From NCBI GenBank assembly GCA_014729395.1, contig WJJZ01000004.1, forward strand, positions 1 to 61,724: a stretch of 61,724 nt of DNA. Direction: 5' to 3'. The translations under genes and the position numbers were made by a program. This DNA is from Candidatus Magasanikiibacteriota bacterium (GTDB lineage: Bacteria; Patescibacteriota; Patescibacteriia; Magasanikbacterales; UBA922). Shown here in pieces: positions 1 through 61,724 of the stretch; within the stretch, counting starts at the first letter, position 1; every line of letters starts with the position of its first letter. Below the pieces are notes generated by a model. The model had not been told where the DNA came from, did not search any database, and saw only the letters and a program-made list of their open reading frames with translations.

Positions 1-146
1 AAAATTTATTAATAAAAAACAATTTGAGTATATAAATAATAAGAGAGGCGAGGTAGGTTATTTACTTTATAAATTAATGAACACTCTAGAGAATAAATAG
101 CCTTTTAAGCCTTTCTGGCATTTCAAGCTTTTTAAGCATTTTAAAT

Positions 147-491
147 ATGATTATAAATACAAAAGCTACAAACATGGATATGACTGATTCTATTCGCAAT
201 TATGTTGAAGAAAAGGTGAATAGTCTTTTAAAATATTTTGATAATATTCAGCAGGCCGATGTTGATGTTGGTTTACATTCACAACATCATCAAAAAGGAA
301 AAATATACTATGCAGAGATTAATCTACATGTTCCGGGTAAAATTTTACGGGTTACCAAAGATGCTGAAGATTTATATAAGGCAATAGACAAAGTTAAAGA
401 CCATTTAAAAGTAGAGCTTGAAAAAGTAAAAGGAAAAATGAGAGGTATTGATAAACAGGCTTTACGAGATCAGAAGAGTTATCAGGGATAA
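147..491 (+). CDS. hpf: ribosome hibernation promoting factor (RaiA/YfiA/HPF family, short form)
   Basis: 114-aa ORF. 'NMDMTDSIRNYVEEKV..LLKYF' and 'YYAEINLHVPGKILRV' match the HPF/sigma-54-modulation fold as I know it. A hairpin plus T-run follows. Confidence 0.85.
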   Translation: MIINTKATNMDMTDSIRNYVEEKVNSLLKYFDNIQQADVDVGLHSQHHQKGKIYYAEINLHVPGKILRVTKDAEDLYKAIDKVKDHLKVELEKVKGKMRGIDKQALRDQKSYQG

Positions 492-507
492 CGTTTTAAA
501 GACAAAG

Positions 508-529
508 ACCGCCCATTCGGGCGGTTTTA
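508..529 (+). terminator. intrinsic terminator after hpf
   Basis: Stem ACCGCCC (508-514) / GGGCGGT (519-525), loop ATTC, then TTTT. Confidence 0.75.
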
Positions 530-611
530 ATATCTACAATAAATAGCTAGACTTTTTCTATTTTTTATGCTAAACTAGTCAAGCTAAACAGATAACAAAA
601 CAGTGAAATTT

Positions 612-3455
612 ATGTCAATTTATTACAAAATTTTTGGAGATCCGAACAAAAAAACTCTTAAGAAATTACAGCCAAAAGTAGATGAGATTAATTCACTTGA
701 AGCTGAATTTGAAAAATTAAATGAACAGGAGTTGAAAGCTAAAACAGGAGAATTCAGAGAAAGATTGTCGTCCGGAGAAACTATGGATGATATTTTAGCC
801 GAGGCTTTTGCCACTGTTCGCGAGGCATCAAAGCGTACCACCGGTATGCGACATTATGATGTCCAGCTTTTGGGTGGTATGGTTTTGCATAGTGGCCAAA
901 TTGCCGAGATGAGAACCGGTGAAGGTAAAACACTCGTAGCCACATTGCCTGTTTATTTAAATGCTTTGCAGGGTAAGGGTGTACATGTGGTTACAGTAAA
1001 TGATTATTTAGCCAAGCGCGACGCGGTTTGGATGGGTCAAATTTATGATTTTTTAGGTCTCTCCATCGGAGTAATTCAGAACCAGAGAATTTCTTATATT
1101 TATGATTCCAATATAAAAGGTGGGGAAGAGGGTGAAGAAAAAGACTTGGAACGAGATGAGAGTGGTAGTTTCAAAGTGGAAGATGATTATTTGCGAGCCG
1201 CCAGTCGTCAAGAGGTTTATCAATGTGATATAACCTATGGTACGAATAATGAATTCGGTTTTGATTACCTAAGGGACAATATGGTGCAAAATGTAAAAGA
1301 AATGGTAATGAGACCGGGTAATGAGATGAATTTTTGTATTATAGATGAAGTTGATTCCATATTAATTGATGAAGCCAGAACACCGCTTATTATTTCCGCT
1401 CCGGCCGAAGAGGCAACTGAGAGATATTATCAGTTTGCAAAACTTGTAAGACAATTAAATGAAGAAGAAGATTACAATATTGATGAAAAATTAAAAGCGG
1501 CCACTTTGACCGAAAAAGGCATTGAAAAATTTGAGAACTGGCTTGGCATAGACAATATTTATGTCGAAGGCGGTATAAGAACAGTTCATCATATTGAACA
1601 AGCTCTTAAAGCGGAAGTACTTTTTAAAAAAGACAAAGATTATATAGTTGAAAATAATGAAGTTGTAATCATTGATGAATTTACCGGCAGAAAAATGCCG
1701 GGACGACGATATTCAGAAGGTTTGCACCAAGCAATCGAAGCAAAAGAAAACGTAGAGATTCAACGCGAGAGTCGAACTTTAGCTACGATTACGTTTCAAA
1801 ATTTATTTAGAATGTATAATAAAATGGCCGGCATGACGGGTACGGCTAAAACCGAAGAGGAAGAATTTTTAAAAATTTATAATACCGAGGTGGTGGTTAT
1901 ACCAACCAACAGACCTGACGCCAGACTTGATCACTCTGATAAAATTTACAAAAATGAAAGAGGAAAATTTAAAGCCATTACAAAAAAAATCAAAGAGTGT
2001 CAGGAAAAAGGCCAACCGGTTTTGGTTGGTACTATTTCAGTAGAAAAAAATGAACAATTAAGTGACTATTTGTCTAAAGAGGGTGTTCAACATGAACTTT
2101 TGAATGCCAAGAACCATGAAAGAGAGGGTGAAGTTGTCGCTCAGGCCGGTCGCAAAGGGGCGGTAACATTGGCTACCAATATGGCCGGTCGTGGTGTGGA
2201 TATTAAGCTTGGTGGGAGTCCGGCATCATCAGAACGAGAAGAAGAAATAAAAAAGCTGGGAGGTTTGTTTGTTTTGGGTACGGAAAGACATGAGTCACGT
2301 CGTATTGATAACCAATTGCGTGGTCGTGCCGCCAGACAGGGTGATCCCGGTGAAACTCAATTTTATGTTTCCACCGAAGATGATTTGATGCGTATTTTTG
2401 CCGGGGATAGGCTGAAAAGTATGATGACCAGACTGAAAGTCCCCGAAGATATGCCAATAGAACAAAAGATGATTACCAAGATGCTTGAAAGCGCTCAGAA
2501 AAAAGTTGAGGGCCATCATTTTGATATCAGGAAACATGTTTTGCAGTATGATGATGTTTTAAACAGACATAGAACTGTAATTTATGAAAAAAGAAAACAG
2601 ATTTTGGAATTATCCGAGGCTGTGGATATTTTACCCGAAGAAAGTATAAAAAAAGACGACTCTTCTAAAAGTCAAAACGAAACAAGTGGGTTTGAAATTG
2701 AGAATTATAACAGTCTCAAGGAAATTATAATGGACTATATTGAGCAGGAAATTGAATTTGTGGTTTCGTTTCATACTAACCCCGAGGAAAGGGTGGAGAC
2801 GGAAACCAGTTCTTCTGAATGGAATTTAAAAGAGATTTATGAAACCATGAGAACTATTTTCCCTTTTACAAGTAGTGAGAGGGAAAAATTGCTTCATATG
2901 AATCCGGGTAAAGAAGGTAAGATGGATGAAGTGGATGCCAGGGAAAAAATTGTACAATTTTTACTTGATAAGGCCAAGGGATCATACGAAGAGATTGAAA
3001 AGAGTATTGTCGGTTCTGCCGATTCTGAAGAAGAGGGTGTTAAAATATTGCGCGGTATTGAAAAAAGTATTCTTCTCAGGTCAATTGATTCTTTGTGGGT
3101 TGATCATCTGGTTGATATAGATTATCTTCGAACCGGAATTGGTTTGCGCGGTTATGGACAACGTGATCCGTTGGTTGAGTACAAGCGAGAAACTTATCAT
3201 ATGTTTAATAGACTATTATCCAGTATTCAAAAAGAAGTGGTATATTCATTTTTTAAAGTGGGCGTAGGTCTGCAATTGGCGCCAACCGTAATGGCGTCAG
3301 ACAAGCTGACCTTGAAAGGAGCGCAGAAATCAACCAGCCAGCAAGGAAGGCACATACAAAAGAAACCCAGAAATGATTCCGGTGAGAAAATCGGTAGAAA
3401 TGATCCTTGCCCTTGCGGTAGCGGTAAAAAGTATAAAAAATGCCATGGTCGATAA
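612..3455 (+). CDS. secA: preprotein translocase ATPase SecA
   Basis: Motifs 'MRTGEGKTLVATLP', 'IIDEVDSILIDEARTPLIIS', 'TNMAGRGVDIKLGG', 'LGTERHESRRIDNQLRGRAARQGDPG' and the C-terminal zinc motif 'CPCGSGKKYKKCHG'. The ORF opens at GTG 603, but ATG 612 gives the canonical 'M....KIFG' N-terminus. Confidence 0.97.
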   Translation: MSIYYKIFGDPNKKTLKKLQPKVDEINSLEAEFEKLNEQELKAKTGEFRERLSSGETMDDILAEAFATVREASKRTTGMRHYDVQLLGGMVLHSGQIAEMRTGEGKTLVATLPVYLNALQGKGVHVVTVNDYLAKRDAVWMGQIYDFLGLSIGVIQNQRISYIYDSNIKGGEEGEEKDLERDESGSFKVEDDYLRAASRQEVYQCDITYGTNNEFGFDYLRDNMVQNVKEMVMRPGNEMNFCIIDEVDSILIDEARTPLIISAPAEEATERYYQFAKLVRQLNEEEDYNIDEKLKAATLTEKGIEKFENWLGIDNIYVEGGIRTVHHIEQALKAEVLFKKDKDYIVENNEVVIIDEFTGRKMPGRRYSEGLHQAIEAKENVEIQRESRTLATITFQNLFRMYNKMAGMTGTAKTEEEEFLKIYNTEVVVIPTNRPDARLDHSDKIYKNERGKFKAITKKIKECQEKGQPVLVGTISVEKNEQLSDYLSKEGVQHELLNAKNHEREGEVVAQAGRKGAVTLATNMAGRGVDIKLGGSPASSEREEEIKKLGGLFVLGTERHESRRIDNQLRGRAARQGDPGETQFYVSTEDDLMRIFAGDRLKSMMTRLKVPEDMPIEQKMITKMLESAQKKVEGHHFDIRKHVLQYDDVLNRHRTVIYEKRKQILELSEAVDILPEESIKKDDSSKSQNETSGFEIENYNSLKEIIMDYIEQEIEFVVSFHTNPEERVETETSSSEWNLKEIYETMRTIFPFTSSEREKLLHMNPGKEGKMDEVDAREKIVQFLLDKAKGSYEEIEKSIVGSADSEEEGVKILRGIEKSILLRSIDSLWVDHLVDIDYLRTGIGLRGYGQRDPLVEYKRETYHMFNRLLSSIQKEVVYSFFKVGVGLQLAPTVMASDKLTLKGAQKSTSQQGRHIQKKPRNDSGEKIGRNDPCPCGSGKKYKKCHGR

Positions 3456-3462
3456 TACGAAC

Positions 3463-3491
3463 TTGACAATTATAAAAAAAAATTATAAATT
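3463..3491 (+). promoter_or_regulatory. sigma-70-like promoter candidate
   Basis: TTGACA (3463-3468), 17-nt spacer, TAAATT (3486-3491). Confidence 0.4.
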
Positions 3492-3502
3492 ATGTGTCAA
3501 CA

Positions 3503-3524
3503 AAGCCCCGCGATTGCGGGGTTT
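3503..3524 (+). terminator. hairpin after secA (terminator or 5' stem-loop of the next transcript)
   Basis: CCCCGC (3506-3511) / GCGGGG (3516-3521), loop GATT, weak TTT tail. It lies downstream of the 3463 promoter candidate. Confidence 0.45.
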
Positions 3525-3557
3525 ATGGTAGGGTTCTTTATACAGGGAGGTGCAATA

Positions 3558-3977
3558 ATGTTCAGAAAAAATAAAGCACTGTTTATCAGTGCAACCATAT
3601 TTATCTCCGGAGATAATCCGGATAATTTTGAAGTTAACGTCGATGCGGCCAATCGAATTTTTGATTGGGCGGCCAATGGTTTTTTGATTGTTTCAATTAT
3701 ATATAGCGGGGATTATAAAGATACCGATACGCGCAGAAAAATCAAAGAAAAAATTGATTTAGCTTTTAAAAAATATTGTAATTTCAAATTGGATAATTTA
3801 AAAATCATGTGTGTTTCAGATTTGAAAGATCCGGATCCTTTTTGGGATTTGATGAGAAAGTCCGCTGTGAATGCCAGTCGTAGTTTATTGGTTGCAGAAA
3901 CCGAGCGGGGGGAAGAGTTGGCCCGGATCATTGATGTTCGCTTTGAATATGCAAGAGACTTTTTACGACATATGTAA
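3558..3977 (+). CDS. hypothetical protein (139 aa)
   Basis: GGGAGG (3545-3550) lies 7 nt before ATG 3558. The track ORF from 3492 reads through the hairpin, so I trimmed it. I recognise no family. Confidence 0.6.
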   Translation: MFRKNKALFISATIFISGDNPDNFEVNVDAANRIFDWAANGFLIVSIIYSGDYKDTDTRRKIKEKIDLAFKKYCNFKLDNLKIMCVSDLKDPDPFWDLMRKSAVNASRSLLVAETERGEELARIIDVRFEYARDFLRHM

Positions 3978-3995
3978 AAAGTCTCTAAAAAAAAG

Positions 3996-4027
3996 AGGTT
4001 CAGCACAGGCTGAACCTTATTTTTTTA
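3996..4027. terminator. bidirectional intrinsic terminator between convergent genes
   Basis: AGGTTCAG (3996-4003) / CTGAACCT (4011-4018), with an A-run upstream and a T-run downstream. Confidence 0.7.
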
Positions 4028-4571
4028 TTTCCAGTTTAATTCCATTATCTCGAATATTGAAAAAATCAATATCTTCAGTGGTAAGACAGCGACTATCATG
4101 GAATTTATATTCTCTCTCATCCAGTAAAAATATATCTACGCATTTTTCATCATTTTCAATATAACAGTCATCCAATGATTGGCATGGGCAGCTTTGTATT
4201 GTACGATTGTTTACTCGATTGCGTCTCCATGTGGCAAGCGGTTCACCTTTTTTGCACATACCGTGCTCTACCGAATCATCAAATATTTCTCCGCAGCCAT
4301 GCCATATATTTAAGAAGCCGATTTTTTTTGATGCTCCACAATAACATATGTTTAAGACAACTGCCAATGATAAAATTGTGATTGAAATAATATATTTCCT
4401 TTGTTTTGCAATTACAAACTTATTATTTTCTTTGTAATAATCAAAAAAATATATTATAAAAATCACAGCTAACAACCACAGCAGTAGTGGGGGAAGAAAG
4501 GTGATACCGGCTATTACAAATAGAGATATCGCCACTATGAAAAATATAAGAATAAGTAATGCGCAACCCAT
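4017..4571 (-). CDS. hypothetical membrane protein with Cys-rich C-terminal domain
   Basis: 184 aa with three N-terminal hydrophobic helices, then about 10 cysteines. A strong SD (GGAGG at 4578-4582 on the minus strand) lies 6 nt before the ATG. Confidence 0.7.
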   Translation of the reverse strand: MGCALLILIFFIVAISLFVIAGITFLPPLLLWLLAVIFIIYFFDYYKENNKFVIAKQRKYIISITILSLAVVLNICYCGASKKIGFLNIWHGCGEIFDDSVEHGMCKKGEPLATWRRNRVNNRTIQSCPCQSLDDCYIENDEKCVDIFLLDEREYKFHDSRCLTTEDIDFFNIRDNGIKLEIKK

Positions 4572-4758
4572 TAGTCACCTCCTTTTTATTTAATGAACAT
4601 GATATATTGACATATAAATGGAAAAATGTCAAAGTAATTGCGGTAAAAATTATCCACATAGATTGATTTTAAAAAGAGGCGGAAATCTGTTAGTATGACC
4701 AAGACTATGAATAATAATTTTTCAAAAGAAAACCATTTATAATCCGGTGATATTTTAG

Positions 4759-4784
4759 CCACTCCAATCGAGTGGTCTTTTTTT
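4759..4784 (+). terminator. intrinsic terminator-like hairpin 50 nt upstream of the PRTase-like CDS
   Basis: CCACTC (4759-4764), loop CAATC, GAGTGG (4770-4775), then TCTTTTTTT. Confidence 0.55.
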
Positions 4785-4834
4785 GAAAGTTCTTTATTCA
4801 ATTATTTACCACCAATAGGTATGGGAGGTGTAGC

Positions 4835-5740
4835 ATGCAAGCTATAGAGAAAGGACTTTGGTCCAGTCAGATCGGAAACGCCACTGTATATGTCCTTGAG
4901 ACAGAGGACAGTATTGCTCTTGCCCACAGTCGTGATTTGGTTGGGGAGGAGAAGCGTAAGTTGATGAAGAGAGTGGCGAGGCAGTATTTTTTGAAGTTTG
5001 CCCGTTTCTTTCGCAGTCTTGACCATTTTTCGTGGGTTTTGATTGAGCGCGGCGGTCGTTTCGTGGCGCCAACAGACGATGAGATGCTCGCTTGGTGGGG
5101 TGGACCCCGTCCAATTTCACGACTTGAAATGAAGCGTGATTTGGATCAGAAAAAGGAGTGTTCATGGCGGGGAAGGTTTGTATGGGGTTTGGAGGACTTG
5201 CTGGCAAGGCGAGATCGTAATTGGGTGGTTGGTGAAACTTGCTTGGCCAGCGGCACCACCTTGTATACGCTTGTGTCAGCAGCTCTTGATGTTTATCCAC
5301 AACCGAGTCTTAGACATGTAATTTTGGTTTGCCCGGTAGTGGGTTCATACGGATTAAGACGACTTATTAAGCTGTGTAGTGCAAACAACATAGCGCTCAC
5401 CGTTTATACTTCCGGTATTTGGTGGGTAAATAGCGAAGGGTATGATTCCGGCCTGCCATTTACTGATTTTGTTATCAATGATGAACCGGATCCCGACAAC
5501 CTTCAGTTTGTACCACCAAAAACCAAGTCGGTTTATCAACAGCAATACAGGGGCAAGCCCGTATGCGTTGTGGGGGATGCGGGCGACAGCATGGCTGTAC
5601 GAGATGATGGGTTGGAGGATAACAAAGCACAGTTTAATTACATGCGTGATACAGTCAAAGGTTTCAAGAACCTTGGGCTTGATCCACATAAATATTTTCC
5701 TTCCTGGCCGCTCAATGAACTGATTCTGGCAGTGGCTTAG
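4835..5740 (+). CDS. divergent uracil phosphoribosyltransferase-family (type I PRTase fold) protein
   Basis: 301 aa. By-eye alignment to E. coli Upp: 'VLIERGGRF' ~ 'VPILRAGLGM', 'ISRLEMKRD' ~ 'ISVVGMYRNE', 'WVVGETCLASGTT' ~ 'LIVDPMLATGGS', 'VVGDAGDSM' ~ 'PGLGDAGDK'. GGGAGG (4823-4828) precedes the ATG. The gene is visibly G+C-richer than its flanks. Confidence 0.6.
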   Translation: MQAIEKGLWSSQIGNATVYVLETEDSIALAHSRDLVGEEKRKLMKRVARQYFLKFARFFRSLDHFSWVLIERGGRFVAPTDDEMLAWWGGPRPISRLEMKRDLDQKKECSWRGRFVWGLEDLLARRDRNWVVGETCLASGTTLYTLVSAALDVYPQPSLRHVILVCPVVGSYGLRRLIKLCSANNIALTVYTSGIWWVNSEGYDSGLPFTDFVINDEPDPDNLQFVPPKTKSVYQQQYRGKPVCVVGDAGDSMAVRDDGLEDNKAQFNYMRDTVKGFKNLGLDPHKYFPSWPLNELILAVA

Positions 5741-5748
5741 AGCGATAT

Positions 5749-5864: not shown

Positions 5865-7919
5865 ATGAATAAAGTTAAAAAAGCAAACAGCGCAAGGTCA
5901 AAGGTCAGGTGGGGTATAATTGGCATACTCGCGCTTTTTATTATAGCCGGTTTTTTTGATGTGCCAACCTGGGCAAACAAAGCGATTGATACGGTTAATA
6001 ATACCGCATATTTAGGTATACCCAGAATTCCCGAAAAGGGTTTTAATCTTGGGTTGGATTTACAGGGCGGCGCTCATCTTATTTACCAGGCGGATGTCAG
6101 TGGAATAAAAGAAAGTGAAAAAGGTGCTGCAGTAGAAGGGGTTAGAGATGTGATTGAAAGAAGAGTGAACGCAATCGGTGTCTCTGAACCTAATGTACAA
6201 ACCACCAAAGTGGGAAACGATTATCGAGTTATTGTGGAATTACCCGGGGTAACCGATATAAACGAAGCTATTAACATGATTGGCGAGACTCCAATTTTGG
6301 AATTTAAAGAAGAAAATGATGAGCCGCAAAGAGAGCTAACTGAAGGAGAGAAGCAGCAATTGAGTGATAATAATTTACAAGCAGCTCAAAAAGCTACTGA
6401 GGCTTTGGATAAGATTAAAGAAGGGGCTGAATTTGGTGAGATTGCAAAAGAGTATTCAGAAGATGAATTAAGTAAAAATAATGGCGGTTATTTGGGTTAT
6501 ATTGACAGATCTTCGCCTTATCCCGCGCTTTATTCATGGGCCGAAAATGCTCAAGAGGGGGATTTGGGAGAATTGGTTCAGTCAAGCGAGGGTTTAAACA
6601 TACTTAAAAGAGGAGCTGAACGAGACGGTCAGGTGGAAGTGGAAGCCAGTCATATTTTAATTTGTTATCAAGGAACACAATTTTGTCCTGATAACGAATT
6701 GACTAAAGACGAAGCGTTTTTAAAAGCTCAGTCACTTTTCCATGAAGCAAATGCGGAAAATTTTAGCGATTTGGCAAAAGAAAATTCCACAGATCCCGGG
6801 ACAAAAGATGTTGGTGGTGATCTGGGTTGGATAAGTAAAGGTCTACTTGTTACCGAAGTTGATGAGCCGCTTTTTTCATCTGAAGTTGGTCAAATAATCG
6901 GTCCGGTTGAATCTCCTTTCGGTTATCATATTTTATATAAAAAGAATCAAAGAGTAGGTAAAGAATATGAAATTTGGCGAATACTGGTAAAGACCATGAC
7001 AGCGGCAGACATTTTACCTCCTGATGATCCTTGGAAAAATACAGGATTATCCGGTAAGCAGCTTGAAAAAGCGGAAGTGGTTTCAGATCCACAAACCGGA
7101 GCTATACAGGTTTCTCTGTTGTTTGACGAAGAAGGAAAAGATTTATTTAAAGAACTTACAGAAAGAAATATCAGCAAACCGATAGCAATATTTCTAGATG
7201 GAGCACCGATTAGTATTCCAACCGTAAATAGTGTAATCCCGGATGGTAGAGCTGTAATTCAGGGTAATTTTAATCTAAGTGAGGCACAATTGTTGGCACA
7301 GAGATTAAATGCCGGTGCTCTGCCGGTTCCGGTTGAGCTGATTGCTCAGCAGAGTATTGGTGCCAGCTTGGGTGCCGAATCATTACAAAAAAGTTTGAAA
7401 GCCGGTATTGTCGGTTTGATCTTAGTAATGCTTTTCATGCTGATTTATTATAGATTGCCCGGTTTGGTGTCTGTTTTTTCTCTTACTTTGTATATCACTT
7501 TGACACTGGCCATTTTCAAATTGATCGGCGTTACTTTGACATTGGCCGGAATCGCAGGATTTATTTTGTCAATCGGTATGGCGGTTGATGCAAATGTTCT
7601 GATTTTTGAGAGATTAAAAGAAGAGCTTAAAGAAGGTAAAAGTCTAAAGGCCGCGGTTGAAGAAGGATTTTTACGAGCATGGACGTCTATCAGGGATGGG
7701 AATATTTCCACGCTGATTACTTGTGTACTGTTAATTTGGTTTGGTTCCAGTTTTGTGCAAGGTTTTGCCGTAACTTTGGCAATTGGTATTTTAATCAGTA
7801 TGTTTTCGGCTATTACAGTGACGCGTGTCATCTTGAGATTTGTGGTACCTTGGTTCAAACCGGAAGGCGGTTTCATGTTTTTGGGCAGTAAAAGAGTTGA
7901 GAACAAAAAGACTGAGTAA
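5865..7919 (+). CDS. secD: protein translocase subunit SecD with inserted PpiC/parvulin-type PPIase region
   Basis: SecD signatures: 'GLDLQGGAHLIYQ', 'ETPILEF', 'IAIFLDGAPISIPTV' and C-terminal TM helices containing 'GMAVDANVLIFERLKEE'. Residues ~153-385 carry parvulin motifs: 'GGYLGYI', 'ASHILI', 'GGDLGWI', 'PFGYHILY'. Confidence 0.9.
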   Translation: MNKVKKANSARSKVRWGIIGILALFIIAGFFDVPTWANKAIDTVNNTAYLGIPRIPEKGFNLGLDLQGGAHLIYQADVSGIKESEKGAAVEGVRDVIERRVNAIGVSEPNVQTTKVGNDYRVIVELPGVTDINEAINMIGETPILEFKEENDEPQRELTEGEKQQLSDNNLQAAQKATEALDKIKEGAEFGEIAKEYSEDELSKNNGGYLGYIDRSSPYPALYSWAENAQEGDLGELVQSSEGLNILKRGAERDGQVEVEASHILICYQGTQFCPDNELTKDEAFLKAQSLFHEANAENFSDLAKENSTDPGTKDVGGDLGWISKGLLVTEVDEPLFSSEVGQIIGPVESPFGYHILYKKNQRVGKEYEIWRILVKTMTAADILPPDDPWKNTGLSGKQLEKAEVVSDPQTGAIQVSLLFDEEGKDLFKELTERNISKPIAIFLDGAPISIPTVNSVIPDGRAVIQGNFNLSEAQLLAQRLNAGALPVPVELIAQQSIGASLGAESLQKSLKAGIVGLILVMLFMLIYYRLPGLVSVFSLTLYITLTLAIFKLIGVTLTLAGIAGFILSIGMAVDANVLIFERLKEELKEGKSLKAAVEEGFLRAWTSIRDGNISTLITCVLLIWFGSSFVQGFAVTLAIGILISMFSAITVTRVILRFVVPWFKPEGGFMFLGSKRVENKKTE

Positions 7920-10582: not shown

Positions 10583-10625
10583 TACAAAAAAACGACCAAC
10601 TGTACATTGTTGGTCGAATATTTTT

Positions 10626-11768
10626 TTAGTTTATTAACCCCCTCATTTTTTCAAGAGCTAAATCTCTCAAGTCGTTTCTAGACTCGGAATACTTATATAG
10701 AATTCTCCATTCATCAAGGCTATGAGCAAGTATAGACATTTGTTCAAGAATAAAATTTTTAAAAATGGGGTCAGGTTCAGACCTATTTAAATAATTCGAA
10801 TATTCTTCAAAACTAATATTTGCCATTTTTACTTTATTCATAATTGCATTTTTAATATCCAACCTAAACTTCGCTTTTTCGTAAACAATACACAGTTCAG
10901 TAAAATTACCCGCCAATTCAGCCATTTTATTTAATGCTTTGTCTTGTATTATTTTACTATGTTCATTATTCGGACAAGATTCGTGCCATTTATTAAAATT
11001 TCGTTCAAATTCAGTCAATTTCTCCAGAACATTTATTTGCAAGTCTATAGATTCCTTATTCGAGGATTTCAAATCCCAAGTACTGTAGCATTTGATTAGT
11101 TCACTCATTTTTCTATGAATTATGTCTTTTAGTTCATTTTTTTTATTGGAATAAATGAATACATAAAACCATTGAAGAAAATTTACAGCAAATTTATACA
11201 TTTTTGTAATAGCAATTTCCCTATATTTACTACCCGGCAGAGAATGTTTGTAAATATAATGCCAGTCTTCAAAAGTATTAGCCAGTTTAACAAGTTTTTG
11301 AATTGCAATTTTGTCTAAATCATTCCAATCATCAAAACAAGCACAAAATTCCTTCCATTGTTCTGAGGTGAATTCAAAATCAATTATACGCTTCAAGGCC
11401 AAACGCAGTGACTTGCTGTCATATGAACAATTTAAAAAAAAATAACACCATTCATCAAAATTACCGGCCAATTCAGCCATTTTATCGAGAGCAATAAGTT
11501 TTATTCTACTCGACAAAGGAGCTGATTTGTAAACTTCCTCCCAATCACCAAATGTCTCACATTTTTGCTTTATTATTTTTAATATGAAATTTTCAATGTC
11601 GCTTTCCGGATTCGCATTGCAGTGTATTTTGACCAATTTTTCTATACTCAAAGATTCAAAAAATTCTTTATCCTCTGAAAGAGCGGGCCAAAGTAATACT
11701 ACGGTCAAACCAAATTTAAATTTTTTTTCCAATTCAGTAAAGGTTTTGTTTTGTTCGCTCGGTTTCAT
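10626..11768 (-). CDS. alpha-helical tandem-repeat protein (~31-residue period, ~10 repeats)
   Basis: Repeat pattern 'A..KM.ELA.NF.EW..........'; for example 'ALDKMAELAGNFDEW', 'AIQKLVKLANTFEDW', 'ALNKMAELAGNFTEL', 'ILEQMSILAHSLDEW'. A strong SD (GGAGG) lies 8 nt before the ATG. Confidence 0.7.
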   Translation of the reverse strand: MKPSEQNKTFTELEKKFKFGLTVVLLWPALSEDKEFFESLSIEKLVKIHCNANPESDIENFILKIIKQKCETFGDWEEVYKSAPLSSRIKLIALDKMAELAGNFDEWCYFFLNCSYDSKSLRLALKRIIDFEFTSEQWKEFCACFDDWNDLDKIAIQKLVKLANTFEDWHYIYKHSLPGSKYREIAITKMYKFAVNFLQWFYVFIYSNKKNELKDIIHRKMSELIKCYSTWDLKSSNKESIDLQINVLEKLTEFERNFNKWHESCPNNEHSKIIQDKALNKMAELAGNFTELCIVYEKAKFRLDIKNAIMNKVKMANISFEEYSNYLNRSEPDPIFKNFILEQMSILAHSLDEWRILYKYSESRNDLRDLALEKMRGLIN

Positions 11769-11911
11769 AATGAGCTCCTCCGTTTGCTTGTTAAATTGTA
11801 AAGGTCAGGTTCACGAAAAATAACACAAAAAGTCATTTAAGTCAACCGGGTCATGAGTAAAATTAGGATTTGCTTTTTTGTGTTGTTTTTTGGTAATCTA
11901 CCATAACAGTT

Positions 11912-17843: not shown

Positions 17844-19055
17844 ATGAAAAAAATTATAAAATATTTTTTTATTGCATTGATTCTATTTACTTTTGTGCCT
17901 TCAATTGTTTTTGCATCGTCAGACTCCGGAATTGATGAAGAGATTGATAAAATTAATTTCAGTCTCTTTCATTCGTTCACCTGTCCGCATTGTAAAGATG
18001 AGATTGAGTTTATTAATAATGAGTTGGAACCCGAATATGGTGAGTGGGTTGAATTTAATTTATATGAAATCAGTGATCCTGAAAATCAAAAATTACTGGA
18101 TCAGTATGCTTATTTCTATAAGGCCTCGGTTAGCGGGGTGCCGATAACATTTATAGATGGACAGGTGGTATATGGATATGACAATGAAAAGACTACAGGA
18201 CAAGAACTAATAAGCATAATAGAAACAAAACTTAAGGAAAAAGGGATAGTTTATGAAAAAGATGCTAATGTCGAATCTGCAGAAAAGTTTGATCCATCTG
18301 ATTTTGTCACCGTTCCGGTGATTGGCGAGATTAATGCAAAGACTTTTTCGTTGCCTCTTTTGACGGTTATGATAGGATTACTCGATGGCTTCAATCCTTG
18401 TGCCATGTGGGTTTTACTTTTTTTAATTTCCTTGCTTTTAGGCATTGAGAACAGAAAAAGAATGTGGATTCTTGGATTGTTGTTTATAGTATCGTCCGGC
18501 TTGGTATATTTTTTCTTCATGGCTGCTTGGTTGCATTTTTTGATGTTTGTGGGGATGATATTTTTCGTACGTATCATTATCGGTTTGGTGGCAATTGGCG
18601 TAGGCGGATACAACCTGCGTGATTATTGGAAAAATAGAAAGTCAGACGGTGTAGTTTGTAAAGTATCCAATAAAGAAGGTACTAAAAAGACTTTTGATAA
18701 AATAAAAGACATTGTTTATAAAAAAAGTCTGCTATGGAGTATTACGGGAATAATACTACTTGGTTTTTCAGTAAATTTGGTTGAGTTGGCTTGTTCGGCC
18801 GGCTTTCCGGCAATTTTTACACAAATTTTGGCAATCAGTGACGTGGCTATGTGGAAACGATATCTTTATATGGCTGGATATATATTCTTTTATATGCTTG
18901 ACGATATGATTGTGTTCGCAATTGCCATGATAACATTGAAATCAAAAGTGGTAGGCAGTAAATTTGCCAAATATTCAAATCTTATAGGTGGGCTGATAAT
19001 TTTTGTTCTCGGTTTGCTATTGATTTTTAAACCCGCGTGGCTAATGTTTTCCTAA
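17844..19055 (+). CDS. secreted thioredoxin/glutaredoxin-like domain (CPHC) fused to a DsbD/CcdA-like polytopic membrane domain
   Basis: Signal-like N-terminus, 'FHSFTCPHCKDE', and membrane-embedded Cys motifs 'DGFNPCAMWVL' and 'LACSAGFP'. I chose ATG 17844 because AAGAGG lies upstream. Confidence 0.65.
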   Translation: MKKIIKYFFIALILFTFVPSIVFASSDSGIDEEIDKINFSLFHSFTCPHCKDEIEFINNELEPEYGEWVEFNLYEISDPENQKLLDQYAYFYKASVSGVPITFIDGQVVYGYDNEKTTGQELISIIETKLKEKGIVYEKDANVESAEKFDPSDFVTVPVIGEINAKTFSLPLLTVMIGLLDGFNPCAMWVLLFLISLLLGIENRKRMWILGLLFIVSSGLVYFFFMAAWLHFLMFVGMIFFVRIIIGLVAIGVGGYNLRDYWKNRKSDGVVCKVSNKEGTKKTFDKIKDIVYKKSLLWSITGIILLGFSVNLVELACSAGFPAIFTQILAISDVAMWKRYLYMAGYIFFYMLDDMIVFAIAMITLKSKVVGSKFAKYSNLIGGLIIFVLGLLLIFKPAWLMFS

Positions 19056-39422: not shown

Positions 39423-40145
39423 ATGAAATCACTAATCAGCGTAATAATACCTGTATACAATCAAGCGACAGCTCTAGAAAAATGCCTTGAATCAATCAGA
39501 GGGCAGTCATATTCCAATATTGAAACTATAGTTATTGATGATGGAAGTACGGACACTCTCCGATCTCAAATTACCAGTCTTCAATCTAAATTTTCCTTTC
39601 AATATTATAGTCAATCCAACAAAGGTGCACCGGCTGCACGCAACAAAGGTTTTGAATTGTCCGGTGGTGAATATGTTATATTTTGGGATGCTGATATCGT
39701 AGGAAAAAGCGATATGCTGGCAAAAATGCTACAGTCTCTGAAAGATAATCCCGAGGCAAGTTACTCCTATTCCAATTTCTATTTTAGTAATGGCAAAAAA
39801 ATGAAATGCGGTAAATTCAGCGAAGATAAATTAAAAAGACAAAATTATATTACCACAACCAGCTTGATAAAGAGATGTGATTTTCCGGGATTTGATGAAA
39901 GTTTAAAAAGATTTCAAGATTGGGATCTCTGGTTTACAATGATGGAACAGAATAAGTTTGGCATTTGGATAGATGAATATTTATTCAGAATTATTTCCAA
40001 GGGCTCTATCAGTACGTGGCTTCCCAAATTTGCCTATAAAGGTTTTTTTAAAAAATTACCTTTTATAAAACCCAGAGTTGAAAATTATGAAAAAGCAAGA
40101 AAAAAAATATATAAAAAACATGGCTTGATTGATACGAACGCTTGA
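39423..40145 (+). CDS. GT2-family (GT-A) glycosyltransferase
   Basis: 'ISVIIPVYNQ...L..CL.SI..QSY.NIE.IVIDDGSTD' and 'FWDAD'. Confidence 0.88.
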   Translation: MKSLISVIIPVYNQATALEKCLESIRGQSYSNIETIVIDDGSTDTLRSQITSLQSKFSFQYYSQSNKGAPAARNKGFELSGGEYVIFWDADIVGKSDMLAKMLQSLKDNPEASYSYSNFYFSNGKKMKCGKFSEDKLKRQNYITTTSLIKRCDFPGFDESLKRFQDWDLWFTMMEQNKFGIWIDEYLFRIISKGSISTWLPKFAYKGFFKKLPFIKPRVENYEKARKKIYKKHGLIDTNA

Positions 40146-40170
40146 CAAGCTAAAATCATTATGATATTTT
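40142..40170 (+). promoter_or_regulatory. promoter candidate for the small zinc-ribbon ORF
   Basis: TTGACA, 17-nt spacer, TATTTT. It overlaps the GT2 stop codon. Confidence 0.4.
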
Positions 40171-40209
40171 AATTTGTTCATTAATGAAGGAAACATAAGG
40201 GAGGTATAA

Positions 40210-40428
40210 GTGAAAGAAAAGAAATCTTTTGTAAAGTTTGAGGCTGAATGCGAAAAGGGGCACAAGTCCGATATCGTGTCCATACAGTCTCCATTTGAAA
40301 TTATAAAATACACTCGCTGTCCATTTTGTATGAGAGAGTTTGTAAGTGTTTTTAGAAAAAATGAAGATGGTGGATTTGGTGGGGGAGCCATCAATAAAAA
40401 ATTTGTCAAGAAAACGGTACAGAATTAG
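40210..40428 (+). CDS. small Cys/His protein (possible zinc ribbon), GTG start
   Basis: 72 aa; 'CEKGH...CPFC'. AAGGGAGG lies 5 nt before GTG 40210. The 3' end overlaps the convergent gene by 4 nt. Confidence 0.5.
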   Translation: MKEKKSFVKFEAECEKGHKSDIVSIQSPFEIIKYTRCPFCMREFVSVFRKNEDGGFGGGAINKKFVKKTVQN

Positions 40429-48665: not shown

Positions 48666-48694
48666 TTGACATAAAAGCTTTTTTCTTGTATTTT
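48666..48694 (+). promoter_or_regulatory. promoter candidate for the DUF488 cassette
   Basis: TTGACA, 17-nt spacer, TATTTT. Confidence 0.4.
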
Positions 48695-48731
48695 GCATAG
48701 GATTTCGATCTTTACATTTTAGGAGGTAAAT

Positions 48732-49385
48732 ATGGACGAAAAACAACTTGATTTGTTGAGTATCAAACAGGTACAGATGATTCCAAAACTCGAGAAACCG
48801 CCGCATCTTAGGGCTATTTGCAGTATCAGTTGCAGTATGCCCGCCAGACTTTTTTTTGGTATTCTTAAAAAAAATCAGGTTACCATGATTATGGATACCC
48901 GACGGACTCGAGATTATAGAGGGAGGGGTTTTTTTACCAGTGAAGATGATTTTCGTTATCTTTGCAAATGTCATGATCTTGTTTACAAGGTGGTACGGGA
49001 GTTGTCTCCCACAAGAGAGATGAGGGCGACTTTTGCTGATGAATTTAAATTTGTCAAAAAGGCAAAAGATCGAGACCCGATGGCCTGGACTAATTTTTTA
49101 CGTAGTTATGAAGATATTTTACGTAGTGAAAGACCGTTACGACAGGGTAGGGTACATGATCTTCTTTATGGTGAGCATAGAGTAATTGCGATTATCTGTG
49201 CTTGTCAGCACCATGAAGATTGTCATCGTATGTTGGCAACAACTATGATGGCAAGGTATTTACCGGGAGTGGAGTTAAAAATTCTCTATCCTGAAGATAA
49301 AGAGCCCAGGAGGTCTTACCCACGACGATATCGTCTGGAGGATTTTCCACATTTCGGTATCCAGGCCGATCCGCCAAGGAGATAG
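48732..49385 (+). CDS. DUF488-family protein
   Basis: By eye, 'ICSISCS..ARLFFGILKKNQVTMIMDTRR' and 'RVIAIICACQHHEDCHRMLATTMM' fit the DUF488 pattern (I.TIGHS...F...L....I..L.DVR ... ..L.C.E.....CHR..IA). AGGAGG lies 5 nt before the ATG. Confidence 0.65.
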   Translation: MDEKQLDLLSIKQVQMIPKLEKPPHLRAICSISCSMPARLFFGILKKNQVTMIMDTRRTRDYRGRGFFTSEDDFRYLCKCHDLVYKVVRELSPTREMRATFADEFKFVKKAKDRDPMAWTNFLRSYEDILRSERPLRQGRVHDLLYGEHRVIAIICACQHHEDCHRMLATTMMARYLPGVELKILYPEDKEPRRSYPRRYRLEDFPHFGIQADPPRR

Positions 49386-49388
49386 AGA

Positions 49389-50105
49389 ATGAAAGGTATA
49401 ATTCTTTCACATACGAGAATGGGTGCAACCAACTCCGGTTTTTGCACCAACATTCTAGTTGAAGATGGTAATGGAAATCCTATTCAAATAAGGCCCAGAT
49501 CTCTTCCGAACAATAATCTGTTTATTTGCTCATTTGGAATGAATGAAAATCAGATGATGAAGAAGTGGCGGCCTGGCTGTTGGGTGAGACTTCCCAAATT
49601 CAAGTACGTTGTTGGGGAATATCGAAGACCAACACATCCTGAAGATGTAATTTTGGATCACTATGAGGGAGTGGAGGTTGATTTTGAAAAAATAGTGAAG
49701 AAATCATCCTACATTGAATTAATAGAACCTTTTTGCTATAGGGGGATTGATGAACTGTTTCCTGATGTCAGGATTAAGCGGGGTTCTTTTAATAAATGGT
49801 ATGTACCGGGGGGTCTAAATTTAAATCATTCGGTTGGCTATATCTACTCTAAAGAGGTAAAAATATATGTAGATTTTGATAAGTTTCGAGCTAGAATAAC
49901 CGATGAGAATGGCAATATTATCAATGGGCCTCTCAAAGATGAACATTTGCTAAGAAAACTGAAAAAAAAGAAAGAAAAAATCCAACAGAAATCATTGATA
50001 TATAAAAACAAATTGTTAAGGCTGTCTCTCGCAAACCCTTGGAACGAGGGAAATAGAATGGGTGAGTCTCGTTGTTTTGTGATGGTGAGTCATATTGTTA
50101 AGTGA
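49389..50105 (+). CDS. hypothetical protein, translationally coupled to the DUF488 gene
   Basis: 238 aa. AAGGAG sits inside the upstream gene's last codons, 3 nt separate its stop from this start, and the ORF ends in TGA. I have only a weak recollection of a similar 'dual-OB' family ('..IRP...', 'LRLSLANPW....CFVMVSHI'). Confidence 0.6.
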   Translation: MKGIILSHTRMGATNSGFCTNILVEDGNGNPIQIRPRSLPNNNLFICSFGMNENQMMKKWRPGCWVRLPKFKYVVGEYRRPTHPEDVILDHYEGVEVDFEKIVKKSSYIELIEPFCYRGIDELFPDVRIKRGSFNKWYVPGGLNLNHSVGYIYSKEVKIYVDFDKFRARITDENGNIINGPLKDEHLLRKLKKKKEKIQQKSLIYKNKLLRLSLANPWNEGNRMGESRCFVMVSHIVK

Positions 50106-50126
50106 ATAATAGGAGAAGAAATTATA

Positions 50127-50155
50127 AAGAGTCTGAAATAAGGCTCTTTTTTTGC
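50127..50155 (+). terminator. terminator after the cassette
   Basis: AAGAGTC / GGCTCTT stem (one G-U pair), then TTTTTTT. Confidence 0.6.
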
Positions 50156-56425: not shown

Positions 56426-56427
56426 AT

Positions 56428-57601: not shown

Positions 57602-57674
57602 CAACAGTTCACAGTGATCAGTTCACAGTTAGCAGGATTATATCCTCTGTTGGTTGTGAACTGAAAACTGCGAA
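57601..57674. repeat. inverted heptamer array (TTCACAG family) between atpB and atpE
   Basis: ACAACAG TTCACAG TGATCAG TTCACAG TTAGCAG (57601-57635), 11-nt loop, then CTGTTGG TTGTGAA CTGAAAA CTGCGAA (57647-57674). It begins on the last base of the atpB TAA. Confidence 0.85.
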
Positions 57675-57687
57675 TGGACATTATTAA

Positions 57688-57987
<300 letters not shown>

Positions 57988-58042
57988 GTTGATCAAAGAA
58001 GGGCAATGAAAAAATATTGTCCTTCCTGATGAGTTTATCTTT

Positions 58043-58177
58043 AATTTTGGATTTCAAATTTTGAATTTTGAGTAAATTTCAAATGATTTAATTTTAAACT
58101 TGTCCTGAAAGTTTTGAATGATTAATTCATTAGTAATTAAAAATTCAATCAAAATTCATAATTCAAAATTCATAATT
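58043..58177. repeat. AT-rich inverted heptamer element, copy 2 (AATTTTG vs CAAAATT/CATAATT)
   Basis: AATTTTG GATTTCA AATTTTG AATTTTG (58043-58070) and CAAAATT CATAATT CAAAATT CATAATT (58150-58177). Confidence 0.75.
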
Positions 58178-58190
58178 AAATTATAATAAT

Positions 58191-58787: not shown

Positions 58788-58789
58788 TT

Positions 58790-59191
58790 ATGAGTAAGAT
58801 TTCAAATCGACAATATGCCAGAGCCTTGTATGAGGTGAGTTTGGAAATGGAGCAGAAAAATATGGAAATAACTGAATTAATAACTGCGTTTTTGGCCGTT
58901 TTAAAAAAAGACCATAAAATTAAGCAGGTGGATAACATAATTAAGGAGTTTATTAAAATTGAGAAAGAGCAGTCAGGTGTAAAAGATATTGAAATAACCG
59001 CATCGGACGAACTTGATAAAAAGACTGTAGAAGTGATAAAAAAAGCTTTTGGTGATAAGGTAGAGGAAACTTTGGTGGTAGATAAGACTATTTTGGGTGG
59101 TGTGAAAGTTAAATTAGGTGATAAGATTTTTGACGCCAGTTTAAGAACGCAATTGGAAAGATTAAAATATGTTTTATATTTCAATAATTAA
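58790..59191 (+). CDS. atpH: F1 ATP synthase subunit delta (short, 133 aa)
   Basis: 'YARALYEVS' and C-terminal 'ILGGVKVKLGDKIFDASLRTQLERLK'. Confidence 0.85.
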   Translation: MSKISNRQYARALYEVSLEMEQKNMEITELITAFLAVLKKDHKIKQVDNIIKEFIKIEKEQSGVKDIEITASDELDKKTVEVIKKAFGDKVEETLVVDKTILGGVKVKLGDKIFDASLRTQLERLKYVLYFNN

Positions 59192-59209
59192 TTCAAATAA
59201 TTAATTCAT

Positions 59210-60061
59210 ATGAGGGAAACTAAGGAAGGAAATGTTAAACCACTACAGATTGAATTAAATAATATAAATATTGATGGTCTTGTACCAGAAGGTTTTATAA
59301 ATAATTTTCAAAAAGAAAAAAAAGATATTATAAAAAATGAAGAAGAGAGAATTGCTAGAGTAAAAGAATATAACCCAGATGAGGAGATTGATTATCGAAA
59401 AAGAATGGAATTAGCTATTCGTGAATGGGTAGATAATAAATTTAAATCTATTTACTATAAAAGATATAAAGATTTGATTTCTAAATATAGGCCTGATTTT
59501 GAACCTTACAGTTTTAATAAGTTTATTAGATCGGGTGCATTGGGGAGATTTAAATTTATTGACAAACTTGGTATAAAACCTGGTTTATATGTACTTAAAT
59601 CTTTACCTGAGGAGAATTCATATAGAAAATACAGAATTGATGGTATTACACCAAATTGTTATTTAAGATTAGAAGGAAAGCGTGGTCATTATTTCCCATC
59701 TGGCGATTTAAAAATTGTGGAAGAAGAGGATTTGACTAATTTTAATATTAAAGAGGTTGGGGAAGATGATAAAAATTTAAAAGATTCAAAAAAGAAAGAA
59801 GAGATTCCAAAAATAAGAAGAATGACCGGAGATGAACACAAAGATGTGCAAGCGAATAGTGGGGAAGATGTCGAGGAGGATGTTCTTGAGCCAGTAGAAA
59901 AAATGAAACAAGTCGTAAAAAAAATAAAAACAAGAGAGCAGGAAAGAATCAAGAAAGAACGAAGTGAATTTAATAAAGAAGCTGTAGAAGTTTATCAGAT
60001 GGCAAGAAGGACAAGTAAGCATGATTTTATTAAATGGTTTATTGATAATTATATTAAATAG
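59210..60061 (+). CDS. hypothetical charged protein inserted between atpH and atpA
   Basis: 283-aa ORF, very A+T-rich and K/E-rich. I recognise no family. Confidence 0.55.
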   Translation: MRETKEGNVKPLQIELNNINIDGLVPEGFINNFQKEKKDIIKNEEERIARVKEYNPDEEIDYRKRMELAIREWVDNKFKSIYYKRYKDLISKYRPDFEPYSFNKFIRSGALGRFKFIDKLGIKPGLYVLKSLPEENSYRKYRIDGITPNCYLRLEGKRGHYFPSGDLKIVEEEDLTNFNIKEVGEDDKNLKDSKKKEEIPKIRRMTGDEHKDVQANSGEDVEEDVLEPVEKMKQVVKKIKTREQERIKKERSEFNKEAVEVYQMARRTSKHDFIKWFIDNYIK

Positions 60062-60101
60062 AAATATTTAGTGCCCTGTGGGCTTTGTAAATATAAAAAA
60101 T

Positions 60102-61592
60102 ATGTCAACGAATACAATTGTAAATGAATTAAAAAAACATATCTCATCATTCGAAAAACAGGTTGAGGTGGAAGAAGTCGGAACAGTTATTGAGGTAGGA
60201 GATGGTATTGCCAGAATGGATGGTTTGACAAGCTGTCAGGCTCAAGAGATGCTTGAGTTTCCGGGTGGAGTCTATGGGGTGGCTCTTAATTTAGAAGAAG
60301 AAACCGTTGGAGCCATTATTTTGGGTGAATATAAAAATATTAAAGAAGGTGATACTGTCAAAAGAACCGGCAGAATTTTGTCTGTCCCTGTTGGCGAAGC
60401 GGTTGTAGGCAGAGTTTTGAATGCTTTGGGTGAGCCGGTTGATGGCAAAGGAGAATTAAAGACAAAAGATTATTATCCAATGGAGAGAATTGCGCCGGGT
60501 GTTATGACTCGTGAACCGGTTAGCGAACCTGTGCAAACGGGAATTAAAGCGATTGACGCTATGATCCCAATCGGGCGTGGTCAGCGTGAGCTTATTATTG
60601 GAGACAGACAAACCGGTAAAACCGCGATTGCAATTGATGCTATTATCAATCAAAAGGGTCAAAACATGAAATGTATTTATGTGGCGGTTGGTCAAAAAGA
60701 ATCAAAAATTGCCAGAATTGTTGCCAAATTGGAAGAAACCGGTGCTATGGAATACACGACTATTGTTATTGCCGGTGCATCTGATCCGGCCAGTATGAGT
60801 TATTTGGCTCCGTACGCAGGTGTAGCCATGGCGGAATATTTTGCTGACAAAGGCGAGGATGTATTGATAATTTACGATGATTTGAGTAAACAGGCTTGGG
60901 CCTATCGTGAAATTTCTCTGCTTCTTAGAAGACCTCCCGGACGTGAAGCTTATCCCGGTGATGTATTTTATCTACATTCAAGATTACTAGAGAGAGCATG
61001 TAATTTAAACAAAGAAAACGGCGGCGGTTCTATTACGGCATTACCGATTATTGAAACTCAAGCCAGTGATGTATCCGCTTATATTCCGACAAATGTGATT
61101 TCCATTACAGACGGTCAAATTTTCTTGGAAACAGATTTGTTTTACAAAGGTATCAGACCGGCTCTAAACGTTGGTATTTCCGTATCTCGTGTTGGTGGTT
61201 CGGCTCAGCTGAAACCAATGAAAAAAGTAGCCGGAAAGATGAAGTTGGCAATGGCTCAATTTAGAGAGCTGGAAGCTTTCGCTCAATTCGCCAGTGACCT
61301 GGATCCGGAAACAAAAAAACAGATTGAGTTAGGTCAAAGAATTACAGAACTTATGAAACAAGCCCAATATTCACCGATGTCGGTTGAGGATCAAGTAGTT
61401 GTTATTTATGCGGTTAATAATGGTTATTTTGATGATGTAGAGGTAGATAAAGTATCAGAATATGAGACTAAGTTAGTAGATTTTATGAATAAAAGTAAAA
61501 GAAAATTATTAGATAAAATTGCCGGTAATGAGTGGAATGACGAGATTGAAAAAGAATTGAAAGAGGCCTGTGAAGAATTTAAGAAAAGCTAG
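60102..61592 (+). CDS. atpA: F1 ATP synthase subunit alpha
   Basis: '[18 protein letters not shown]', '[42 protein letters not shown]'. I chose ATG 60102. Confidence 0.96.
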
Positions 61593-61634
61593 AAAAAGCT
61601 AGAGAGGCCTGAAAAGCCGGAAAGGCTAGGATAG

Positions 61635-61724
61635 TATGCAAGATTATCATGATTTATTAGTCTGGAAACGAACTGTAGAATTTACCAAATTAATTTATCG
61701 TTTAACTCAGAAATTTCCAGAAGA
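61635..61724 (+). CDS. four-helix-bundle protein (23S rRNA IVS protein / Avd-like family), 5' fragment cut by the window end
   Basis: Hand translation 'MQDYHDLLVWKRTVEFTKLIYRLTQKFPE' matches the family N-terminus ('L.VW......L...IY..T..FP..E'). Confidence 0.6.

Follow-up and report, generated by a model that had tools for sequence, protein, structure and literature searches.

Why would a bacterium place a Shine-Dalgarno (SD) sequence before a handful of its genes and leave the genes around them without one? The question is raised by a stretch of 61,724 nucleotides, hereafter the window, from a Candidatus Magasanikiibacteriota bacterium of the candidate phyla radiation (CPR). The window is the entire contig WJJZ01000004.1 (C16) of assembly GCA_014729395.1 (G000), which comprises 1.01 Mb in 17 contigs, has 36% GC, and is 94.7% complete. 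Its small size, a bS1 protein with four S1 domains, and homologues in Ca. Uhrbacteria agree with an assignment to the CPR (Patescibacteria). The original prediction, made from the letters of the window, was that strong SD motifs precede only hypothetical or accessory genes, that core genes have A/T leaders, and that the SD-bearing genes are either recent imports from SD-using donors or a special class for which the host reserves SD-dependent initiation. Our analysis makes it probable that the genome has two mutually exclusive kinds of gene start, one without SD in a native majority, and one with SD in flexible cassettes and in rpsU, the gene of ribosomal protein bS21.

We inspected the 30 nt upstream of the start of each of the 61 genes called in the window. 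The seven strong SD sites are all present, at the starts 3558, 4571 (-), 4835, 11768 (-), 40210, 48732, and 49389, whereas about one would be expected from the 1.7% frequency of such matches at internal start codons (Poisson p about 1e-4). The remaining 54 genes have A/T leaders, and no SD was found before SecA, SecDF, DnaG, RpoD, AlaRS, MetRS, uS13, uS4, RpoA, Fmt, PriA, or AtpA. Pfam confirmed 28 of 30 sampled genes with A/T leaders, SOD and PGI also among them. One predicted site was lost: the weak AAGAGG before the gene at 17844..19055 (+) is only a chance GAGG of 4 nt in a native-type context (AAT ATG, with T at -1). The gene itself is of the native type, with its true start at 17844, downstream of a terminator-like hairpin.

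The contrast extends to the whole genome. The 16S ribosomal RNA (rRNA) gene on contig C11 ends in the canonical GGATCACCTCCTTT, which means that a complementary anti-SD is present. We called 936 genes in G000, which uses all three stop codons, with a picker of open reading frames (ORFs) that is based on codon bias, takes the first ATG, GTG, or TTG, and is unaware of SD motifs. The strength of the SD was scored as the exact complement to the 16S tail, a measure that replaced ViennaRNA duplex energies against the 13-nt tail, for which controls were noisy, and the chance rate was taken from 11,839 internal in-frame start codons of the same genome. GGAG or GAGG peaks at -12 to -9 across the starts, with 47 genes at -10 and around 3 per background position. 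The distribution of SD strength is bimodal: 854 of the 936 first starts have no match, 10 have a match of 4 nt, and 72 have a match of at least 5 nt. Among the latter, 49 are 7-9 nt long, typically AAAGGAGGTG, with a spacer of 4-7 nt. Matches of at least 5 nt are found at 1.7% of the internal start codons. Those of 4 nt are depleted at gene starts (1.1%, vs 4.1% in the internal control). Hence, the SD is not equally common on core genes, and the predicted dichotomy is real.

The genes lacking an SD have a signal of their own. T occupies position -1 in 77% of them, where G is found in only 3%, and in 22% of the SD-led genes, so the SD and T(-1) signals exclude each other. While A reaches 43-51% in many upstream positions of the genome, the sharp signal is this T. 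The two classes also differ in their surroundings, since the upstream gap is 70 nt in SD-less and 146 nt in SD-led genes, and coupled starts account for 32% of the former and 4% of the latter. The upstream composition profile of G000 revealed no TATAAT at a fixed distance that would point to leaderless mRNAs for native genes.

What kind of genes carry the SD? For this comparison we used a working set of 78 SD-led genes, in which strong alternative starts had been added, and the 858 SD-less genes. A homologue in G013, a genome of the same family that was compared whole, was found for 6 of the 78 SD-led genes (8%) and for 570 of the 858 others (66%; Fisher p 2.5e-25), and rpsU is the only convincing orthologue among the six. 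The SD-led genes are shorter (157 vs 262 aa), richer in GC (0.40 vs 0.36) and GC3 (0.38 vs 0.30), and have a lower codon score, all four differences with p below 1e-7, and they are mildly clustered in the genome. They are thus accessory, as predicted, except that the SD of rpsU is conserved. The word "hypothetical" fits them less well. Only two of the seven SD-led proteins of the window have a Pfam family (DUF488-N3a and DuOB), and families were found for 14 of the 30 largest SD-led proteins elsewhere in the genome: a DUF559 nuclease-like protein, a pentapeptide protein, a giant MopE-repeat protein, two phosphoribosyltransferases, a GNAT protein, a UDP-glucose dehydrogenase, a GCS2 protein, a B12 radical-SAM enzyme, a CxxCxxCC zinc/iron-chelating domain, a transketolase, a histidine-kinase ATPase, and a weak match to a zinc ribbon. 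Several of these, such as the transketolase, the dehydrogenase, and the phosphoribosyltransferases, are ordinary enzymes, and the class is therefore better called flexible than simply hypothetical. We found no bias towards secretion, as N-terminal hydrophobic segments are not enriched in SD-led proteins (19% vs 25%).

These genes also tend to stand alone. A TTGACA-type promoter precedes 53% of the SD-led and 17% of the SD-less genes, and an intrinsic terminator follows 42% and 15% of them, respectively. In the window, each SD-led unit has the same anatomy of promoter, leader, SD, ORF, and terminator. In the organization that we propose, around 92% of the genes are native, a class to which every conserved housekeeping gene except rpsU belongs, as do accessory genes such as glycosyltransferases. 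The native genes have no SD, an A/U-rich leader, U at -1, and often tight packing or coupling to the gene upstream. The other 8% or so would be flexible, lineage-specific, stand-alone cassettes lodged in variable slots between syntenic core genes, and ordered as a TTGACA promoter, often a GTTC(A/T)TT box, a perfect complement of 7-9 nt to the 16S tail, separated from the start by 4-7 nt, then the ORF and, last, an intrinsic terminator. Conservation and statistics suggest that the SDs drive initiation at these genes.

If so, the native genes presumably initiate without SD pairing. The ribosome may recognise them by their unstructured A/U leader, in line with the four S1 domains of the bS1 encoded in G000, and by a fourth base pair, in which U(-1) would meet A37 of the initiator tRNA; this tRNA does have A37 in G000. 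The U(-1):A37 pair is a documented enhancer of initiation in Escherichia coli, and is also described in the Chlamydomonas chloroplast (PMC10018350). Both partners are here, with U directly 5' of the start codon. The difference lies in scale, because the pair exerts a modest tuning in E. coli, whereas U(-1) is near-universal in the native genes of G000 and absent from the SD-led ones. It looks like a main determinant of initiation in the native class.

If most genes do without the SD, why was the anti-SD retained? G000 has the canonical tail, and so do all 16 relatives whose 16S is full-length and ends cleanly. In G012, G022, and G025, the 16S matches end in a non-canonical sequence or span about 2 kb (the latter in G025), which likely reflects insertions in or near the gene. 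Such insertions are known for CPR. A reason for keeping the tail may be rpsU. In G000 it is an SD-led ORF of 78 aa (C11:21709-21945, minus strand), with AGGAGGTGA before a GTG start. We found this ORF by its SD and then confirmed it against bS21 chains of the PDB (E 2.7e-5). The Pfam profile PF01165 misses it, and only 4 of the 41 relatives score above its cut-off. Once identified, rpsU was found to be preceded by an SD of the GGAGGTGA type in 19 of 20 relatives. Missing anti-SD motifs (CCUCC) and an absence of bS21 have been reported for some Parcubacteria (PMC9297842), and the published frequent absence of bS21 in that group may partly reflect a failure to detect it. As a separate observation, in 20 of 33 cases among SD-led leaders genome-wide the base after GGAGGTG is C (often as GGAGGTGCA), where A would be expected from the 16S tail. 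This C breaks the pairing, and it may reflect a limit on helix length or a shared origin of the cassettes. The leader of rpsU has GGAGGTGA.

The closest known system is that of Bacteroidia. In Flavobacterium johnsoniae, bS21 helps to sequester the anti-SD, which results in autoregulation of rpsU through an extended SD (PMC7797042, PMC9976891, PMC13000453). There, as in G000, hardly any native gene carries an SD and leaders are rich in A/U, yet the canonical anti-SD is kept; the gene of bS21 stands out in both by a conserved, extended SD that can pair with the 16S tail. In the Bacteroidia system, ribosomes do not respond to the SD in vitro, and the 3' tail is bound on the platform. There are also differences. 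G000 belongs to another phylum, within the CPR. Its dominant start signal appears to be U(-1), in 77-87% of genes, and not the A at -3, -6, -12, and -13 that is the signature of Bacteroidia (PMC6847099). About 8% of its genes are SD-led, i.e., about 70-80 beyond rpsU, while rpsU is virtually alone in F. johnsoniae. The C-terminal part of its bS21 is basic, and its native ORFs avoid SD-like words. These CPR bacteria are probably a second, very distant bacterial group in which core genes gave up the SD while it was retained for a particular role, and this role appears to reach beyond the control of bS21 to an entire class of genes that are mobile or flexible. We propose that the anti-SD was kept in the lineage at least for rpsU, as in Bacteroidia, and that the cassettes exploit the same anti-SD. 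In the literature searched, we found no paper on an SD dichotomy in CPR; apart from the reports on Parcubacteria cited above, it notes only non-SD Prodigal motifs in a Roizmanbacterium (PMC6509639).

Does the anti-SD of these cells see SD-like sequences in general? Compared with synonymous-codon shuffles, the native ORFs of G000 contain fewer internal GGAGG (0.83, z -5.3), AGGAGG (0.66), and GGAGGT (0.71). The same words are rarer still in G013 (0.64, 0.44, and 0.44, respectively; z about -8), and the look-alike controls GAGGG, GGGAG, and GAGAG are not depleted. This avoidance suggests that SD-like sequences have consequences in the cells of both species. It therefore argues against SDs that are mere relics and, mildly, against ribosomes that are fully blind to the SD.

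The latter point bears on an alternative that refines the two-class organization and is compatible with it. In a gating of the Bacteroidia type, bS21, together with bS18 and bS6, would hide the anti-SD, and extended SDs could be read only by ribosomes without bS21. In that case, the occupancy of bS21 would switch the SD-led cassettes as a regulon, beside the autoregulation of rpsU. The extended GGAGGTGA kept on rpsU across the order is what Flavobacteriales show (PMC7797042, PMC9976891, PMC13000453). The anti-SD persists though 92% of the genes do not use it, and the SDs of 7-9 nt, in the absence of weak ones, resemble the threshold behaviour expected if pairing had to outcompete a sequestering pocket. 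However, the bS21 of G000 aligns with the ordinary E. coli-type protein and has a strongly basic C-terminal part (13 K/R vs 4 D/E, and one Tyr), unlike the less basic form of Bacteroidia, in which bS21 has a signature Tyr54, bS18 has Phe50, Asn56, and Gln58, and bS6 has a C-terminal helix. The avoidance of internal SD-like words, stronger in G013, suggests that the anti-SD is not generally blind, and a share of about 8% SD-led genes is far above that of Flavobacteriales. We regard this gating as possible, but unlikely on balance.

The leaders of the SD-led genes have a second element in common. When aligned, they reveal a box G(T/A)TC(A/T)TT, often continuing with ACA or CAA, 13-35 nt upstream of the SD. 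Scored as G[TA]TC[AT]TT at -60 to -12 from the start, the box is present in 24 of the 78 SD-led leaders (31%) and in 9 of 836 SD-less ones (1%), with an odds ratio of 41 (p 1e-20). It remains rare, at 4 of 313, when only SD-less genes with long upstream gaps are counted. Of the six SD-led transcription units in the window, five match the pattern, with the box downstream of the promoter-like sites, and the sixth (11768) has CCTTTACAATTTAACAA, in which 14 of 15 core letters match the 16S leader of G000.

Similar boxes are indeed present in the leaders of the family's own 16S genes. In G000, ATTCTTTACAATT lies 287 nt upstream of 16S, and of the 16 relatives whose 16S is full-length, 9, counting G000, have such a box (GTTCATTACAATT, GATCATTACAA, and similar sequences) 115-410 nt upstream (G013 falls outside this comparison, because its 16S is unassembled). 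These match BoxA in position and in approximate sequence; before 23S there is no clear copy. BoxA (GCTCTTTAACAA) and other Nus-factor elements are known outside rRNA operons, in the suhB leader of E. coli and in the leaders of CRISPR arrays. The cassettes resemble these cases in having a short BoxA-like box near the 5' end of mRNA leaders, with similar boxes in the 16S leaders of the family and a NusB encoded in G000. They differ in that the box characterizes an entire class, the accessory cassettes led by an SD (31% of which carry it), in a genome at 94.7% completeness where the RNA-binding domain of Rho (Rho_RNA_bind) was not detected. Nus factors are candidate binders of the box.

Taken with the extended SD, the BoxA-like leader raises the idea of a separate expression channel for the flexible genome, one that would tie the cassettes to Nus-modified transcription and to ribosomes with a free anti-SD, e.g., those lacking bS21. 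We consider it rather unlikely. If it were true, dozens of accessory or defence-type genes would be turned on or off by the amount of a single small ribosomal protein, independently of the core genes with U(-1).

Where do the SD-led genes come from? The original prediction offered recent imports as one answer. If the genes are fresh arrivals from SD-using donors, their SDs could be neutral or useless leftovers that are going to decay. Their higher GC, poorer codon fit, short length, and patchy distribution are in line with this. In G013 there are essentially no SD-led genes beyond rpsU, and T is found at -1 in 87% of genes. Across 41 relatives, a census of GGAGGTG-N3-8-ATG against a reversed-pattern control shows a patchy load of strong SDs, highest in G000 (33 vs 10 in the control, i.e., +23) and without excess in G013, G007, G011, G014, G016, G024, G031, and G036. 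The congener G001, of which we had a sample of 151 kb with 148 genes, repeats the dichotomy: 11 of its 148 genes are SD-led, and T at -1 is found in 0% of these and 73% of the rest. Yet its content differs. Four of the seven SD-led genes of the window are missing from their syntenic slot in G001 (4017-4571, 10626-11768, and the pair at 48732-50105), and the pair, which encodes DUF488 and DuOB proteins, is also missing from the slot in G003 and G013. Between secA and secD, G000 has three SD-led genes and G001 a partly different SD-led set, and this slot is empty in G002, G003, and G010. The DUF488(N3a)-DuOB pair is a conserved two-gene module, which recurs in two Ca. Uhrbacteria assemblies with 64% GC (L103 and L104, about 2870-5290), the two proteins being 41% and 27% identical to those of G000, and where it is preceded by a homologue of a G000 protein (C6:26076-26489).

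Other observations are at odds with relics. The genes at 3558, 4835, and 40210 have orthologues in G001 whose proteins are 37%, 60%, and 35% identical, respectively, while the flanking genes are 57-80% identical. The first two orthologues retain the SD and the third has a GGGAG remnant. Counting also a fourth and a fifth locus outside the window, there are four clear orthologue pairs, 37-60% identical, that are SD-led in both species (the median of native orthologues is 69%). The SDs of the genome are all long and properly spaced, without intermediates in decay, two SD-led genes of the window have a GC content like that of the host or lower, and the cassettes share their leader box with the family's own 16S leaders. 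Donors were not detected for the orphans of the window, either among 5.8 billion proteins or in viral contigs. In that protein collection, the 4835 protein has its G001 orthologue as sole homologue, the 11768 protein has none, and the DuOB protein has one distant match (32% identity). The DUF488 protein has matches at 40-42% in two Ca. Uhrbacteria assemblies. We also considered a viral origin and rejected it: four SD-led proteins of the window have no relative in viral contigs and no PHROG family, by a method that detects close relatives only.

The import of these genes thus receives partial support, from their accessory nature, atypical composition, and absence from slots in G001, but we deem it improbable that their SDs are useless leftovers. 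The other predicted answer, a class for which the host reserves SD-dependent initiation, fits the data better, although the mechanism is deduced from sequence. We infer that horizontal transfer brings cassettes in and that they can be lost again, but that selection maintains them once resident, and that resident cassettes would keep their SD and often their box. An SD with a leader box, as opposed to U at -1, provides a marker of the flexible genome of CPR that requires the sequence only. Gene callers trained on a single motif will mis-start one of the two classes. The genome also offers a natural system for asking how the heterogeneity of ribosomes partitions translation.

Several observations weigh against two mutually exclusive kinds of start, or against the picture of mobile cassettes. 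The gene at 11768 carries an SD and T at -1 together, the leader box is found on just 31% of the SD-led class, and some SD-led genes are not rich in GC (0.30-0.32). Neither mobility genes nor integration sites were found with the cassettes, in an analysis that did not search for flanking repeats. The starts were chosen mechanically, and a few of the 78 SD-led calls are false, as is the case for a probable pheT with an upstream TTG. Finally, the control word AGAGG is also depleted in the native ORFs of G013, and the synonymous shuffle ignores codon-pair bias. As for the dichotomy being an artefact of wrong starts, spurious small ORFs, or foreign contigs in the bin, this is largely refuted and very improbable, because, even if the assembly has 17 contigs and some first-in-frame starts are wrong, the SD-led genes are embedded in contigs with syntenic core genes on either side, the peak at -12 to -9 was obtained from starts chosen without regard to the SD, and orthologues, Pfam domains, promoters, and terminators support real genes.

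The anatomy of the cassettes can be followed in detail along the window. The first one begins with a sigma-70-type promoter-like site, TTGACA-17-TAAATT, at 3463..3491 (+), and continues with a GC-rich hairpin (3506..3521), the BoxA-like box GTTCTTT (3533..3539), and the SD AGGGAGGTG (3544..3552), all on the forward strand. Its gene, at 3558..3977 (+), encodes 139 aa with no Pfam family. We took 3558 as the start, and not 3492, because the G001 orthologue begins at the equivalent ATG behind AAAGGAGG. A bidirectional intrinsic terminator at 3995..4018 is common to this cassette and to the convergent one at 4017..4571 (-), which encodes 184 aa with an N-terminal hydrophobic segment, has a GC content of 0.32, belongs to no family, and was not found in G001. 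The leader of this second gene (4575..4598, minus strand) contains the SD AAAGGAGGTGA at 4575-4585 and the box GTTCATT at 4592-4598.

Upstream of the third gene, the forward strand has a terminator-like hairpin with a T-run (4758-4776), a box GTTCTTT (4789-4795), and the SD GGGAGGTG (4823..4830). The 3' arm of the hairpin, the T-run, and the box are kept in G001 (locus L023, about 6990-7010), and the hairpin and T-run could be an attenuator, or the BoxB-like half of a leader of the rrn style. The gene, an orphan of 301 aa at 4835..5740 (+), has a GC content of 0.48. The fourth, at 10626..11768 (-), is an orphan of 380 aa with a GC content of 0.30. Its leader (11776..11845, minus strand) comprises the SD GGAGGA at 11776-11781, the box CCTTTACAATTTAACAA at 11788-11804, and a promoter-like site at 11817-11845, and a bidirectional terminator at 10593..10616 follows both this gene and that at 9158 (+).

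The remaining two units lie further downstream on the forward strand. The leader at 40142..40206 has a promoter TTGACA-17-TATTTT (40142-40170), a box GTTCATT (40176-40182), and the SD AAGGGAGGTA (40197-40206). It precedes a gene of 72 aa with a GTG start (40210-40428), with its terminator at 40427-40448. The two-gene cassette has a promoter of the same type, TTGACA-17-TATTTT (48666-48694), a box GATCTTTACATTTTAG from 48707, and the SD AGGAGGTA (48721-48728). Its first gene, at 48732..49385, encodes the DUF488 (N3a) protein, which matches PDC-M45C, a candidate defence family of PADLOC. The second, at 49389-50105, encodes the DuOB-domain protein behind a SD of its own (AAGGAGA, 49376-49382), and a terminator at 50126-50149 closes the cassette.

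A few other features of the window and its genome were seen in passing. A search of the window against Rfam gave no matches. Within the family, GC content spreads from 31% in G013 through 36% in G000 to 43% in the G001 sample, and the U(-1) start context is retained in all three. The SecD of the window (5865-7919) has a PPIC-type peptidyl-prolyl isomerase domain, at about residues 246-357, inserted in its periplasmic P1 region, and the arrangement is kept in G001, G002, and G013. Contigs C16 and C10 begin with the same 141 nt or so, and this identity is the probable cause of the break in the assembly. Also near this end, at 86-150, a phased AAGC...TTT repeat element lies directly upstream of a gene for a hibernation factor (147-491), and G000 has about 6 copies of this element, G013 about 23.

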